Shown piece after piece: positions 10,999 through 20,800 of a stretch of DNA of 20,800 nt. How positions within the stretch are numbered: position 1 is the stretch's first letter; the number at the start of each line of letters is the position of its first letter. Under the pieces are notes generated by a model, which saw only the letters and a program-made list of their open reading frames with translations, was not told the origin of the DNA and ran no database searches. Source of the stretch: Sandaracinaceae bacterium (GTDB lineage: Bacteria; Myxococcota_A; Polyangia; Polyangiales; Sandaracinaceae); assembly GCA_044220955.1 (NCBI GenBank), contig JBGAQA010000109.1, positions 1 through 20,800 on the forward strand, read 5' to 3'. A program made the position numbers and the translations under genes.

Positions 10999-13900
10999 CT
11001 ACGGGGCGGGGACGTAGCGTGTGTGGCCGGCCGTCACCCGGGCGAACCGGAAGGACGTGCCGTCGCCACGGACGAAGGCGAGGTCGTGAATGGCCTCGGG
11101 CAGCGCGATCGCCACCGGCGCCTGGTCGAGGCGGCGCGTGACGTCCTGGCCGATGCGCACCTGCATCGGCTCGTCACCCGGCTCGAGCACGAGCAGCCCC
11201 TCTCCCGCGGCGACGGTGACGCCGAAGCCGGCGGCGATGCCGTCCTCGTCGCGGCCGTACCCGCTGAAGGCGCTCGAGGCGGGCGGGGCGCCCCCGCCCG
11301 GGTCGGACGCCCGCGCGGCGTCGACTCCGTCGGCGGCGGCACTCACCCCTGCGTCCGCGACGGCGAGGGTGCTCACCACGATGGTCGTCGGTGGCGCGGG
11401 CGCCTGCGCGGGGTGGGTGAGGCGCCACCCCGCGAACCCGAGCGCCGCGAGCGCCGCGAGGATGAACGTCCACTGGAAGCTCGAGAGGCCCGCGGCCGGC
11501 TCGGGCGCCGGCGCTGGCTTCGACGAGACCGGGGCCGCCGGGGCGGCGGGTCGCGCCGATCGCCTCGGCTCGGTCTTGTCGCGCTTGGCCTTGCCCGCAG
11601 GCGTGCTCGCGGGCTTGCTCGGGCTCGTCCGCGGGGGCTCGGACGGAGCCGCGCTCTGGGTCTGGGTCTTGCTCTCGCTCTGGGTCTGGGTCTTGCTCTC
11701 GCTCTCGCTCTCGCTCTCGCTCTCGCTCTCGCTCTCGCTCTCGCTCTCGCTCTCGCTCTCGCTCTCGCTCTCGCTCCCGAGCGGCGTCTCCTCCGACACG
11801 GGGGCTTCCGGCGGCAGCTCGCGCGGCGGCGCCTTGCTGGTCCGCACGGTCAGCGTGACGGGCTTCGGGGGAACCTCGAGGCCCTCACCCGCCGTCTTGC
11901 CCGCGATGTCGTCGAGGGTGTCGAGCTCGTCCTCGCCCGAGGGGTCGCTGTCGCGGCGGATCTCGACCACCGGCGGCTCGTCCGGCCCCGACGCCGGGGT
12001 GGCCGGATCTTCCCCGGCCTGCCGGAGCGTCTCGCGGACGATGTTGCCGGTCTGCTCTTCGTTCTTGGCCCAGCTCAGATCGAGCCCCGCCTCGCTCGGG
12101 GTCAGGCTCTGCAGGGCCGAGGGCTCGTGGACGCGCGGCGGCAGCAGGCTCGGACTGCGAACCGGGAGCGCGGTCTCGCCACGCTCGCGGCGCGCGGCGA
12201 CGATGCGATCGTCGTTGCTGTCGCCCAGGACGGCCGAGATCGCACCCTGCCGCGCCAGGTCGACGAGCACACGCTCGAGATCCTGGGGCGCGAACGTGCC
12301 GTCGACGACGAGCGAGCGTGGGCCGCGACCGTGGCGCAGCGCGTCCACGACCGCCGCGACCGTCGGCGGAGCAGCGCGCAGGATCGAGGCGAGCACGTCC
12401 TCGTCGAACTCGACGCGGTGCGCGAGCAAGAGCCCGCGGCCGGACACCGCATCGACCAAGCCGCCGAGCTCGTTCGCGGCGCGCGAGAGCAGCGTCTCCA
12501 GCGGCTCGCGCACGCTCGCGCGCACGTGCGTGTCGCTGTCCACGACGGTGAAGCGGCCCTCGGTGGCTCCGAGCAGCGCGATCACGACGCGCGGGCCGCG
12601 CGAGAACGACCCGTCGCTCGCAGTCCGCGTGATGTCCACGATGGCGCCGTGCGGCTCGTCGGGACGCTTCCGCAGCTCGACCTCGAAGAGGTTCCAGGCG
12701 TCTCGAACGATGATGCGCGCGTCGGGCCGCTGCTGGGCCGTCGTGGTCACGAGGGGCAGGATGCCGATCCGCTCGAGGCGTCCGCGCACGTCGCCGCCTG
12801 CCCGCAGGCGCTGCTCGAGGCGCGCGCGCGGACGGAGCACCTCGCGCACGGCGCCCAGGATCTGCGAGGCGCCGGCTTCCTTCCGCAGGTAGCCGCTGGC
12901 CCCCGCCGAGAGCTCGCGCATGCGCTGCAGGAAGTCCTCCTTCCACGAGAGCAGCACGACCGGCACGTCGGAGAGGACGGGATCGCGCTTGAGCTCGCGC
13001 GTCAGCGAGAACCCGTCGAGTCGGGGCATCAGGATGTCGGCGATGATGACGTCGGGACGCGAGCGGCGCGCGGCGGCGAGCGCCTCCTCTCCGTCGTGCG
13101 CCTCGGTGGGGATGGCGCCCGCCTCCTGGAGCAGGTTCGAGAAGAACCACACGACCGCAGGGTCGTCGTCGGCGATCAGGATCCGCCGATCCCGGAGGCT
13201 GACCTCCGCGCCCCCGTCGGTGGCCGCCTCGTCGTCGACCAGCGCCAGCGTGGCGGCCGCGCCCTCGCGCTCGCGGAAGTGAAGGCGCCCGCCGCTCCGG
13301 CTCGCGAGGTGCGCGCGAAGGCGACCGATCGCGCTCCAGGTCGCCGCGAGCACCTCGGTACCGTCCCCGATCGGGACGGAGAGATCGCGCCCGCGATCGA
13401 GCGAGTCGACCAGCCCCCGCCGGATCTCCTCGGCGATCTTCGCCGCGAGCTCGGCGACGGTGAGGTCGCCCGAGAGCGCGCTCGTCGAGACGCTCCCGTC
13501 CACGCCGGCCAGGCGCAGCACGCTGCGCTCGAGCGACTCGGTCGCGAGCGGCCTCGCGAGCACGTCCTCGCAGCCCAGCTCGCGCGCCGCGACCGCGTCG
13601 AGCTCCTCGCCCTCGGGCACCAGCGCGACGATCGGCACGAAGTCGGTCAGCGGGTCCTCCCGCAGGCGCCGGACGAAGTCGGAACCGCGCGCGAGCACGC
13701 CGCGATCGACGAGCACGACGTCGGGGGCGCTCGAGCGCGACAGGCGCAGGGCCTCCTCGGGGTCGGCCGCGCCGAGCACCTCGAAGCGCTCGCCAGCGAG
13801 GAGCGCCCGCACGCGCGCCTGCACCTCGGCGCCATCGCAGACCAGCACGCTGACGACGGGCGCGCCACGCAGGCTGGGCGGGGCCGGCACCGAGGCGCGC

Positions 13901-14490
13901 GTCTCGATGGAGCGCGCGAGCTCCTCCTTGAGACGGCCGCGCTCGCTCGCCCGCGCGGGCGGCGCGGTGGGCGGAGGCGGAGGCGGAGGCGGAGGCGGAG
14001 GCGGAGGCGGAGGCTTGCTCAGCGTCGGGGGCGGGACGGCGACCCGCGGGGGTGGCGCCGCCGCGGCGATGCCCTTCAGCGTGTTGCCCTTCAGCCCCGT
14101 CGACTGAGGGACGGCCGCCGCGCGCGGAATCGACACGGACTCGGCGTCGTACGTGGGGGCGTCCGCGCCCAGGACCGGAAGCGTGGCTGCGAGCAGAGCG
14201 AGGAGATCGAGGTCGCCGCCGAGAAGCCCGCGCTTCTCGTCTCGGGCGAGGTCGAGCTTCCCGATCGCCTCCTTGAGCGCGGCCGCCAGGCGCTCGAGCT
14301 GGAACACCTGCGCCGAGGCGTAGAGCGCGTGCAGGCGCCGGCGCAGCTCCTCGCGTGGCTTCTCCTCGCCGGGCGTGCCGGCGAGGAGCGCGACCGAGCC
14401 CTTCAGCTCCTGCGCCTTGCGCGGCAGTCCTTCGACGAACCTCGCCCGGGCGACCCCGAGCGGTGTCGGTCGTGAGCTATCGGTGCTCAT
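10999..14490 (-). CDS. Membrane-anchored multidomain response regulator: Hpt-like, atypical REC, canonical REC, DUF4388-like, low-complexity linker, TM, periplasmic tail
   Basis: EELRRRLHALYASAQVF (Hpt-like); PDVVLVD (REC1); RILIADDD...PDVIIADILMPRLDG...GYLRK (REC2); TM FQWTFILAALAALGFAGW. Confidence 0.85.
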   Translation of the reverse strand: MSTDSSRPTPLGVARARFVEGLPRKAQELKGSVALLAGTPGEEKPREELRRRLHALYASAQVFQLERLAAALKEAIGKLDLARDEKRGLLGGDLDLLALLAATLPVLGADAPTYDAESVSIPRAAAVPQSTGLKGNTLKGIAAAAPPPRVAVPPPTLSKPPPPPPPPPPPPPPPTAPPARASERGRLKEELARSIETRASVPAPPSLRGAPVVSVLVCDGAEVQARVRALLAGERFEVLGAADPEEALRLSRSSAPDVVLVDRGVLARGSDFVRRLREDPLTDFVPIVALVPEGEELDAVAARELGCEDVLARPLATESLERSVLRLAGVDGSVSTSALSGDLTVAELAAKIAEEIRRGLVDSLDRGRDLSVPIGDGTEVLAATWSAIGRLRAHLASRSGGRLHFREREGAAATLALVDDEAATDGGAEVSLRDRRILIADDDPAVVWFFSNLLQEAGAIPTEAHDGEEALAAARRSRPDVIIADILMPRLDGFSLTRELKRDPVLSDVPVVLLSWKEDFLQRMRELSAGASGYLRKEAGASQILGAVREVLRPRARLEQRLRAGGDVRGRLERIGILPLVTTTAQQRPDARIIVRDAWNLFEVELRKRPDEPHGAIVDITRTASDGSFSRGPRVVIALLGATEGRFTVVDSDTHVRASVREPLETLLSRAANELGGLVDAVSGRGLLLAHRVEFDEDVLASILRAAPPTVAAVVDALRHGRGPRSLVVDGTFAPQDLERVLVDLARQGAISAVLGDSNDDRIVAARRERGETALPVRSPSLLPPRVHEPSALQSLTPSEAGLDLSWAKNEEQTGNIVRETLRQAGEDPATPASGPDEPPVVEIRRDSDPSGEDELDTLDDIAGKTAGEGLEVPPKPVTLTVRTSKAPPRELPPEAPVSEETPLGSESESESESESESESESESESESESESKTQTQSESKTQTQSAAPSEPPRTSPSKPASTPAGKAKRDKTEPRRSARPAAPAAPVSSKPAPAPEPAAGLSSFQWTFILAALAALGFAGWRLTHPAQAPAPPTTIVVSTLAVADAGVSAAADGVDAARASDPGGGAPPASSAFSGYGRDEDGIAAGFGVTVAAGEGLLVLEPGDEPMQVRIGQDVTRRLDQAPVAIALPEAIHDLAFVRGDGTSFRFARVTAGHTRYVPAP
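11695..11772. repeat. Perfect (GCTCTC)13 microsatellite encoding (Ser-Glu)n
   Basis: 13 exact hexamer copies, next to a duplicated unit encoding SKTQTQS. Confidence 0.95.
13970..14014. repeat. (GGCGGA)7+GGC repeat encoding a 15-Pro tract
   Basis: Counted directly; in frame in the minus-strand regulator. Confidence 0.95.
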
Positions 14491-18737: not shown

Positions 18738-20048
18738 ATGAAGGTCTGCATGGTCGGCACCGGATACGTTGGCCTCGTGAGCGGGGCGGGCTTCGCCGAG
18801 ACCGGCACGTCCACGATCTGCGCCGACATCGACCGGACCAAGATCGAGAAGCTCGAGCGCGGGCAGATCCCGATCTTCGAGCCCGGGCTCGACGCGCTGG
18901 TCGCGCGGAACGTGGCGGCCGGGCGGCTCTCGTTCTCGACGGATGTCCCGGCCGCCATCGCCGCGGCCGACATCGTCTTCGTCGCGGTGGGCACGCCGAT
19001 GTCGCCGAACGGCGCAGCCGACCTGCAGTACGTGGACCGGGTCGCCGAGACGGTGCGCGACCACGCGAGCAAGGAGTGCGTCCTCGTGCTCAAGAGCACC
19101 GTGCCGGTCGGCACGAACGCGCGCGTGACGAAGATCGTGGCGGGCGCCAAGCACCGGATCCACGTCGTCTCCAACCCCGAATTCCTCAAGGAGGGCGACG
19201 CCATCAGCGACTTCCTCCGGCCGGACCGCATCGTGATCGGCGTCCCGCTCGGCGACGCGTTCGCGAAGGACCGGATGGCGCGCCTCTACCACCCGCTCTG
19301 CCTCGACGTGGACCGCGTGGTCTGGATGGACCCGCCGAGCGCCGAGCTCACGAAGTACGTGGCGAACACGATGCTGGCGATGCGCATCTCGTTCATGAAC
19401 GAGATCGCCGGTCTCTGCGACGCCGTCGGCGCGGACGTGCACCACGTGCGGCACGGCGTCGGCAGCGACGCGCGCATCGGCAGCAAGTTCCTCTACGCCG
19501 GCCCCGGCTACGGCGGCTCGTGCTTCCCGAAGGACGTCTCGGCGCTCGTGCACACGGCCCGCGAGCACGGCGTGGAGCTCGCGCTCGCCGCCGACACCGA
19601 CGCGGTGAACAAGAAGCAGAAGACGGTCCTGTTCCGGAAGCTGTCGAAGCACTTCGACGGATCGCTCGCGGGCAAGCGCGTCGCGGTGTGGGGCATCGCC
19701 TTCAAGCCGCGCACGGACGACCTGCGCGAGTCGCCCGCGCTCACGCTCATCGACGCGCTGCTCGAAGCGGGCGCGCACGTCGCGGCGCACGATCCGGAGG
19801 CGACCGCGAACGCGATGGAGATCTACGGCGACAAGGTCCGCTTCGTGGAGGACCCGTACGACGCCGCCAAGGGCGCCGAAGCGCTCGTGCTCGTCACCGA
19901 GTGGCGGCCCTACCAGAACCCGGATTTCGAGCGGCTGCGCACGCTGATGACGCGGCCCGTGCTGATCGACGGGCGCAACATCTGGGCGGGGTACGGGCTG
20001 CGCAAGCAGGGGTTCACGTACGAGGGGATCGGCGTGCAGGGGAGCTGA
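18738..20048 (+). CDS. ugd: UDP-glucose 6-dehydrogenase
   Basis: GTGYVGL, KSTVPVGT, SNPEFLKEG, AELTKYVAN, GYGGSCFPKD, AFKPRTDDLRESP; AGGAG RBS. Confidence 0.95.
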   Translation: MKVCMVGTGYVGLVSGAGFAETGTSTICADIDRTKIEKLERGQIPIFEPGLDALVARNVAAGRLSFSTDVPAAIAAADIVFVAVGTPMSPNGAADLQYVDRVAETVRDHASKECVLVLKSTVPVGTNARVTKIVAGAKHRIHVVSNPEFLKEGDAISDFLRPDRIVIGVPLGDAFAKDRMARLYHPLCLDVDRVVWMDPPSAELTKYVANTMLAMRISFMNEIAGLCDAVGADVHHVRHGVGSDARIGSKFLYAGPGYGGSCFPKDVSALVHTAREHGVELALAADTDAVNKKQKTVLFRKLSKHFDGSLAGKRVAVWGIAFKPRTDDLRESPALTLIDALLEAGAHVAAHDPEATANAMEIYGDKVRFVEDPYDAAKGAEALVLVTEWRPYQNPDFERLRTLMTRPVLIDGRNIWAGYGLRKQGFTYEGIGVQGS

Positions 20049-20052
20049 GGGG

Positions 20053-20130
20053 TCGCTCTCGACCTCGCTCTCGACCTCGCCCTCGCCCTCGCCCTCGCCC
20101 TCGCCCTCGCCCTCGCTCTCGCCCTCGCTC
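20053..20130. repeat. Degenerate intergenic hexamer tandem array, 13 units
   Basis: TCGCCC x7, TCGCTC x4 and TCGACC x2 in unbroken register, starting 4 nt after the ugd stop. Confidence 0.95.
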
Positions 20131-20135
20131 GGCTC

Positions 20136-20152
20136 TCCGGCCTTCGGCCGGA
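20136..20152. terminator. Small GC hairpin after the repeat
   Basis: TCCGGCC-TTC-GGCCGGA; no U-tract. Confidence 0.4.
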
Positions 20153-20184
20153 CTCGCCGCTTGGATGAGGACGAGAAATACGGT

Positions 20185-20381
20185 TGCCCGCTCGGGGTCG
20201 GGGAACGGTGCCGTCGTGCTCGCAGCCGTCAACCCCGAGCGCGTGCTCGCCATTCTCGCCGGAGCTCAGGAGGACGGGGAAGAACGTCTGGCTGCGGCTC
20301 CGAGTGGCTCCGCTCGCGGCGCTTCGCGCGGGTTGACGGCTGCTCCGCGCGACGGGGGTGGGCGAGTGCCCCGAGCGGGCA
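20185..20381 (+). other. ~197-nt rod-like fold-back element (candidate structured ncRNA or ssDNA promoter)
   Basis: Nested stems: 20185-20197/20369-20381 (13 bp perfect); 13x13 bubble; 20211-20219/20347-20355 (9 bp, one G-U); 20222-20235/20330-20343 (14 bp perfect); 20249-20254/20303-20308; 20260-20265/20297-20302; 20272-20276/20285-20289. Confidence 0.7.
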
Positions 20382-20397
20382 GAACGGAGAGCGGAAC

Positions 20398-20712
20398 ATG
20401 GCCTTGAACGTCTACAGAGATGCACTCCAGCTGGTTCGCGAGATGCGCGAGAACGTCACGAAGATCGCGCAGCACGACGCCGACCTCGGCAAGCAGCTCC
20501 GCCGGGCGCTGACGAGCATCCCGCTGAACATCGCGGAAGGAGAGTGGCAGCGAAACGGGAACGCCCGCGCGCGCTTCGGCACGGCGATGGGGAGCGCGAA
20601 CGAGGTACGCGCGATCCTCGAGACCGCAGACGCGATGGGCTACGTCGTGTCGGACGCGGGGCAGGTCGACGCGCTGGATCGGATCGCGCGGACCCTGCAC
20701 AAGCTCGTGTAG
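20398..20712 (+). CDS. Four-helix-bundle protein (23S rRNA IVP / bAvd-like family)
   Basis: LNVYRDAL...DLGKQLRRALTSIPLNIAEG...FGTAMGSANEVRAIL...GY signature; GGAGAG RBS before ATG 20398; 104 aa. Confidence 0.92.
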   Translation: MALNVYRDALQLVREMRENVTKIAQHDADLGKQLRRALTSIPLNIAEGEWQRNGNARARFGTAMGSANEVRAILETADAMGYVVSDAGQVDALDRIARTLHKLV

Positions 20713-20718
20713 GGCGGT

Positions 20719-20750
20719 CCGAGGCCCGCGGTTCGGGCCGCGGGCCTCGG
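20719..20750. terminator. 13-bp perfect hairpin between convergent genes (bidirectional terminator or REP-like)
   Basis: CCGAGGCCCGCGG (20719-20731), loop TTCGGG, CCGCGGGCCTCGG (20738-20750). Confidence 0.75.
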
Positions 20751-20757
20751 CGATCTC

Positions 20758-20800
20758 TCAGCGCGTCAGCTTCACCAGCACCCCGATGACGTGGTCGAGC
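20758..20800 (-). CDS. 3' end of a probable second four-helix-bundle protein (partial, runs off the window)
   Basis: The minus strand reads LDHVIGVLVKLTR-stop, which aligns with LDRIARTLHKLV-stop of the plus-strand gene. Only 13 codons are visible. Confidence 0.55.
   Translation of the reverse strand, partial: LDHVIGVLVKLTR

Follow-up and report, generated by a model that had tools for sequence, protein, structure and literature searches.

A candidate single-stranded-DNA promoter in fold-back elements upstream of four-helix-bundle genes in a Sandaracinaceae genome and its relatives

A long imperfect fold-back upstream of a four-helix-bundle protein gene in the window (the whole 20,800-nt stretch of DNA analysed here) is, judging from its sequence and that of its relatives, probably an Frpo-like single-stranded-DNA (ssDNA) promoter that would fire into this gene. 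The original prediction had read the folded minus strand as a sigma70-type promoter that is already open; this proposal passed a comparative test and gained a −10 element, though the TTGAC word and the bubble size on which it was built turned out to vary. In the portions of the literature available to us, ssDNA promoters used by the host polymerase are known from the leading regions of conjugative plasmids. A chromosomal, multicopy family distributed across a myxobacterial class would, if the assignment is true, mean that resident elements use ssDNA-gated expression too. The fold-back further gives a direct and cheap test for the large unexplained PF05635 family outside rRNA introns, and its natural variants constitute a mutational scan of the strand read by sigma at each promoter position. 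New here are the count of the −10 element, the division of the −35 between the strands and the census of triloops.

Results

Cassette and genomic setting

The fold-back is part of a cassette that follows a host gene and starts at a tract of tandem hexamers. The features of the region are as follows.

18738..20048, plus strand: host gene ugd (UDP-glucose 6-dehydrogenase), with the cassette directly behind its stop codon
20058..20129, plus strand: tandem tract of 12 hexamers (CTCGCC/CTCGCT/CTCGAC), left boundary of the cassette
20136..20152, minus strand: small hairpin, loop c-TTC-g on the plus and thus c-GAA-g on the minus strand, a DNA mini-hairpin type
20185..20197, no strand: distal arm of the closing stem, paired to 20369-20381 and predicted to form the duplex downstream of the open promoter
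20198..20210, minus strand: bubble arm, non-template in the minus-strand fold, with CACCGT at 20210-20205 (A-11 at 20209, T-7 at 20205)
20211..20235, minus strand: distal arm, with a 16-nt spacer, a conserved GA/GGA internal loop, an A.C mismatch and the non-template −35 TTGACG at 20232-20227
20236..20329, no strand: variable, branched apical part of the fold-back, in which the internal-loop motif occurs a second time and GCGC-TTC-GCGC forms a hairpin at 20319-20329 (c-GAA-g on the minus strand)
20330..20355, plus strand: gene-proximal arm, with TTGACG at 20333-20338 and a 17-nt spacer; its complement is the −35 template strand in the minus-strand fold
20356..20368, plus strand: G-rich bubble arm, C-rich template on the minus strand; from the spacing, a start is predicted near G20368, after T20367
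20369..20397, plus strand: proximal arm of the closing stem, also the predicted 5' leader; GGAG at 20386-20389 resembles a Shine-Dalgarno sequence
20398..20712, plus strand: four-helix-bundle protein gene A, 104 aa (TIGR02436, 56.6 bits; PF05635, 59.2 bits)
20719..20750, no strand: 13-bp hairpin between convergent genes A and B, without a U-tract and without a TNC triloop
20758..20800, minus strand: 3' end of gene B (LDHVIGVLVKLTR*), the second four-helix-bundle gene, convergent with A and truncated at the contig end

In the complete cassettes on contigs C282 and C247, two tracts enclose, in this order, fold-back A, gene A, the hairpin, convergent gene B and fold-back B; further copies on C159 and C105 are cut by contig ends. 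Because the ugd orthologs of four out of four congeneric genomes have neither tract nor cassette behind the stop codon (a fifth genome has no close ortholog), the copy behind ugd is an insertion. All two-armed fold-back matches in this genome (6/6) stand before four-helix-bundle genes. Relatives of the gene are present in 26 of 41 related genomes, an alignment-based search placed the gene subfamily in 51 of 151 sampled genomes of the class, and the leader class was observed in 17 genomes. Atlas protein clusters of the family come mostly from Myxococcota, and a scan of the genome contig collection returned one locus, from an uncultured Sandaracinaceae. The gene and its protein had no match in the plasmid, phage and viral contig collections.

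Hexamer tract segments of at least five units number 173 in this genome, and most are gene-less. Many of these CTCGNN segments come right after stop codons; 42 of the 173 lie at contig ends, and therefore the tracts probably fragment the assembly. The hexamer sequence differs between related genomes, and in the window a tract also occurs at 11651-11776, within a minus-strand response-regulator-like gene (10999-14490), where it is read as an ES repeat. The idea that flanking tracts are always direct was rejected: the 29 gene hits with a tract on each side, a count in which twin cassettes enter twice, gave 19 direct, 8 inverted and 2 ties. Rejected as well was a recent burst of movement, as copies within a genome are mostly 71–92% identical, with one pair at 96%. 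A third idea, that GGGCGAG in the bubble, which is complementary to the hexamer, is a template for the repeat, was dropped because paralogs do not keep it.

In one copy, in the region C36:15202-15300 of this genome, a deletion reaches from the closing stem into the first part of gene A, and the same joint (20194 to 20422) was found in one contig of public run X1. On C247, at about 46480-46530, an extra near-perfect palindrome is inserted at a side hairpin of one fold-back and leaves the promoter arms undisturbed.

Geometry of the fold-back

A listing of the pairs bears out the geometry first proposed. Specifically, TTGACG (20333-20338) lies opposite CGTCAA (20227-20232) within a perfect 14-bp helix (20222-20235/20330-20343), and a 13x13 bubble (20198-20210/20356-20368) is followed by a 13-bp downstream duplex (20185-20197/20369-20381). 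Beyond the 14-bp helix come a 2x3 internal loop (TC at 20220-21 opposite TCC at 20344-46) and a 9-bp helix (20211-20219/20347-20355) that includes one T.G. Since this spacer loop is 2x3, the 17-nt spacer claimed earlier holds for the gene-proximal arm but is 16 nt on the distal arm. The claim that no TANNNT box is present is strictly correct, but the minus strand has CACCGT, with A-11 and T-7, at the bubble edge.

Against shuffled sequences, the fold has z-scores of −3.0 (DNA) and −3.3 (RNA). In minimum-energy folds the plus strand partly fills the bubble with short pairs, and the minus-strand DNA fold is fully open (13x13). Among the 323 perfect inverted repeats of the genome (at least 14 bp, arms 30–246 nt apart), no other has TTGAC/GTCAA in its seed. 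A promoter and terminator scan of 19800-20800, under a rule that demands 9/12 matches, called none.

The −10 element and the bubble edge

For comparison, 101 gene hits were gathered from a chosen subset of matches, with duplicates and truncated copies in and regions shorter than 150 nt left out. The score of the register combined pairing, the loop motif of the spacer, G-richness of the proximal bubble and a closing helix, and used no letters of the −35 or −10. It was passed by 56 upstream regions, 47 of them anchored on the loop motif, which yielded 44 distinct cores from 15 genomes.

In these cores the minus fold has A-11 on its non-template strand in 42/44 and T-7 in 37/44, with both present in 37/44 (42/44 if a shift of −1 to +2 is allowed); because the genomes are related, the counts are not independent. 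The non-template bubble of the plus-strand fold has A-11/T-7 in 0/44, a control that is biased because the register rewarded a G-rich proximal bubble; a structure-only search without that bonus gave, by eye, the same pattern. Applied unchanged to held-out loci (53 hits in 48 new loci, leaving 7 motif-anchored elements from 2 genomes of another family), the rule found A-11/T-7 in 7/7 minus folds vs. 0/7 plus folds, and in all seven elements the proximal arm carries TTGAC and NANNNT occupies the equivalent position. Ten more held-out regions passed the score without the motif; these do not have this −10 and resemble other leader types. In a MAFFT alignment of 16 copies, column 20209 (A-11) is invariant and column 20205 (T-7) is at least 90% conserved.

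Watson-Crick pairing among the 44 cores drops from 41 at −13 to 26 at −12 and to 0 at −11; that the −12 base is C in 28/44 counts against a promoter. According to the excerpted text of PMC2613000, sigma70 binds fork junctions that are duplex to −12 and needs non-template A-11 and T-7; the drop in pairing from −13 to −11 matches the fork-junction layout given there.

Covariation of the stems, put forward earlier as a check, was found, with 21 of 36 pairs changing on both sides in the 16 copies. Pairing was observed in 86.7% of alignment cells vs. 33–46% with partners slid; the shuffle control is inflated by the relatedness of the sequences. Judged by these alignments, the fold is under selection. 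Bubble size, against the earlier expectation, is not conserved: it ranges from about 8x8 to 18x18 among class members, and only the upstream edge is kept.

The −35 element on each strand

TTGAC is the commonest proximal word (16/44), but the word varies: the other cores have TGGAC (6), TTGAG (6), TCGAC (5), CCGAC (4), CGGAC (3) or others (4), and many of these −35 words (TGGAC, TCGAC, CCGAC) are poor, which likewise counts against a promoter. By eye the proximal arm had seemed to conserve the −35 better, but counts did not bear this out (distal better in 12, proximal in 7, equal in 25).

Position by position, discordant pairs divide between the arms. We examined 50 cores (43 motif-anchored, one deleted copy having been dropped, and 7 without the loop); for each position the discordant events are spread over 3 to 6 genomes, which are related. 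T-35 is kept solely on the distal, non-template arm (9:0, 5 genomes), whereas G-33 (9:0, 6 genomes) and C-31 (5:0, neither in 6, 3 genomes) are kept solely on the proximal, template-side arm. As excerpted, PMC2613000 reports that the template bases at −31 and −33 are contacted by R584/E585 of sigma70. The split matches the known contacts of sigma70 in the minus-strand fold. Since the T-35 cases double as T.G wobbles on the minus strand, pairing alone may account for them.

DNA or RNA

Interior triloop hairpins (stems of at least 4 bp) are strongly one-sided, with 71 c-TNC-g vs. 4 c-GNA-g on the plus strand in 4910 nt of 53 elements (TTC 33, TGC 32, TCC 4, TAC 2; all c-GNA-g when read on the minus strand). 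The background is 113 vs. 98 in 400 kb of genome, and genes hold 3 such hairpins in 16,875 nt; in held-out copies the bias is weak (5 vs. 2 in 1801 nt). GCGNAGC is, in the accessible part of PMC13037366, an extra-stable DNA mini-hairpin. At CTTCGG sites a triloop stem of 4–7 bp forms in 10/14, and the cUUCGg reading never has more than 2 bp. The conserved internal loop places GA opposite GCA or GGA on the minus strand and, by analogy with the CGAG blocks described in excerpts of PMC10085684, could form sheared G.A pairs.

Other observations count against a minus-strand reading. By nearest-neighbour energies the minus strand is the stabler one as DNA in 11/44 cores, and the plus strand is the stabler one as RNA in 39/44. 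Moreover, the conserved mismatches at −19 (38/44) and −11 (34/44) are G.U/G.T pairs on the plus strand.

Discussion

A proposed promoter assembled by folding

Under the ssDNA-promoter reading, a freed minus strand would fold by itself, and we infer that sigma70 RNA polymerase would recognize it, meeting a paired −35, a fork junction and unpaired A-11/T-7. Gene A would then be transcribed from about G20368, with a 30-nt leader that places GGAG 8 nt before the ATG. In the duplex state, the −35/−10 pair on the distal arm would point away from the gene and the proximal arm would offer a −35 without a −10; folding would set the non-template elements of the distal arm against the template strand of the proximal arm, making expression dependent on ssDNA. 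The stronger form of this idea, that the element is silent as duplex DNA, is less secure, because the distal arm alone, reading TTGACG-16-CACCGT leftwards, looks like a weak duplex promoter.

The most likely, if weakly supported, source of ssDNA would be a single-stranded intermediate that arises when the cassette itself moves or is transferred. We favour it with low confidence because the cassette is a multicopy, tract-bounded insertion and twins would give each strand a promoter. A lagging-template bias was absent from two complete genomes with dnaA taken as the origin (10 co-directional vs. 3 head-on copies). No reverse transcriptase was found beside any cassette; the genome (88% complete) has four reverse transcriptase matches (L031-L034), all on contigs without cassettes. 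By eye, three of these are group II intron-like and one is retron-like. Four of 24 listed public sequencing runs were examined as contigs, which cannot show absence; the one RNA run among them had no cover over the fold-back.

A broader model is speculative, and we think it may well be wrong. Here, transposase-less mobile cassettes would home into hexamer repeats via an ssDNA intermediate and would express the four-helix-bundle protein only from that intermediate, by a self-assembling open promoter. Twin convergent cassettes would supply a promoter per strand, gene-less tracts would be landing pads or scars, and a sister class of leaders would be a sigma54-type version.

Alternative explanations

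The main rival takes the distal arm for an ordinary duplex promoter (TTGACG-16-CACCGT) that fires leftwards into the hexamer tract and makes a repeat-containing or antisense RNA, the fold itself serving, for instance, recombination or protein binding. Its −35 and −10 do both stand on one arm in the sequence, the distal −35 is overall at least as near consensus as the proximal one, and the variant TTTAC works as a −35, as in the lac promoter. However, such a promoter leaves unexplained the stop in pairing at −11 in 44/44 cores, the retention of proximal G-33/C-31 despite mismatch, and the minus-strand triloops; the distal spacing, moreover, is 16 nt in most copies and 15 nt in 6/43, and the repeat runs in opposite polarity with respect to A genes and to B genes. 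We consider it unlikely, and put on the same level the possibility that the fold works as RNA—either as a leader on a ugd read-through transcript, to which the encoded protein would bind, or as a decoy of the 6S kind for the sigma70 holoenzyme. The absence of a terminator-like site between ugd and the fold-back would permit such a transcript, and both the better folding of plus-strand RNA in 39/44 and the conserved G.U at −19 and −11 speak for it. The same two positions are, on the other hand, almost never Watson-Crick (0/44 at −11, 3/44 at the other), the triloops have a free middle base and the c-TNC-g form and are not RNA tetraloops, and the non-template bubble of the plus strand is without A-11/T-7. 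An Rfam search gave no match at the fold-back, and the decoy branch is weakened by its lack of an RF00013 score there, by the DNA type of its loops and by a 6S candidate elsewhere, the sole scoring locus being C257:58287-58476 (42 bits, cut-off 46.4). That locus (L188, minus strand) is the probable 6S RNA of this genome.

Also raised at the outset was a plus-strand product, in which the folded plus strand would be a priming signal of the single-strand-origin type and the polymerase primer would run back across the hexamer tract. Both strands can form the fold and its paired TTGAC, and Frpo makes replication primers too, as stated in the excerpts of PMC12672017, but non-template A-11/T-7 occurs in 0/44 cores and 0/7 held-out elements on that strand, and in discordant pairs the template strand would lose −33 and −31. 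We regard this option as very improbable.

Comparison with known systems

Masai and Arai (1997) are reportedly a source for the Frpo/ssi ssDNA promoters. Those of the F and IncI plasmid leading regions are presented as such in the accessible parts of three papers (PMC9849209, PMC11541004, PMC12672017), and by the descriptions given there the fold-back resembles them in that a long imperfect template-strand stem-loop upstream of a gene rebuilds −35 and −10 for the host sigma70 polymerase. Computationally, the single-stranded stem-loop here rebuilds both elements, and the folded strand is the template of the downstream gene (minus fold 37/44, plus fold 0/44). Unlike a plasmid leading region, the fold-back lies behind ugd among chromosomal genes, and its protein is without a plasmid or phage match; it is chromosomal, multicopy and bounded by hexamer tracts, with no conjugative context found. 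It further differs from Frpo/ssi in that its putative −10 is reduced to A-11/T-7, unpaired in the bubble, and in that its top is branched with GNA triloops and it is predicted to drive a four-helix-bundle gene.

Like 6S RNA (RF00013), the element has an upstream arm, a central bubble and a closing stem that mimic an open promoter; unlike it, the fold-back has no covariance-model score and is multicopy and gene-tied, and its features speak for DNA and for the antisense strand. GGA/GAA-triloop ssDNA hairpins in transcription or priming signals are also known from the hairpin promoters of the phage N4 virion polymerase and from the G4/ssiA origins, but these, as far as the excerpts of PMC13037366 go, use a phage polymerase or primase on a short hairpin, whereas here triloops decorate a long fold-back with sigma70 boxes.

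The encoded protein belongs to the PF05635/TIGR02436 family, as do the ORF-bearing 23S rRNA intervening sequences, XCC0516 and Avd of diversity-generating retroelements. XCC0516 (2gsc) is the closest solved structure to the gene A protein in a PDB search; Avd, which we presume to be kin to this family, was absent from the results of that search. Unlike the intervening sequences, the cassette stands outside rRNA (there is no rRNA family in the window), and unlike a diversity-generating retroelement it has no adjacent reverse transcriptase or template repeat in the window, which is cut by the contig end. A literature search that had most subscription journals outside its reach found nothing on fold-back leaders or repeat-flanked four-helix-bundle cassettes, and the accessible part of a paper on multicopy repeats in Geobacter (PMC2700814) draws no link to the four-helix-bundle family.

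Other leader types

Two further kinds of leader were observed before four-helix-bundle genes. The second class is again a fold-back, with YGGCGCG-N4-NTGC on the distal arm and YGTCACG or YGGCACG-N4-NTGC on the proximal arm, so that the arms jointly make up a split sigma54-like −24/−12 word. The pattern, designed after the data had been seen, occurs in 16/74 other upstream regions vs. 9/300 random windows, and two of the 16 look spurious. In the third type, one near-perfect long hairpin beside hexamer tracts covers the Shine-Dalgarno sequence directly before the start codon. The loci are as follows.

L049, L059, L096-L099, L145, L149, L159, L173-L175, L185, L187: second leader class, upstream of four-helix-bundle genes
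L052, L100-L102, L105, L142, L146, L147: third leader type
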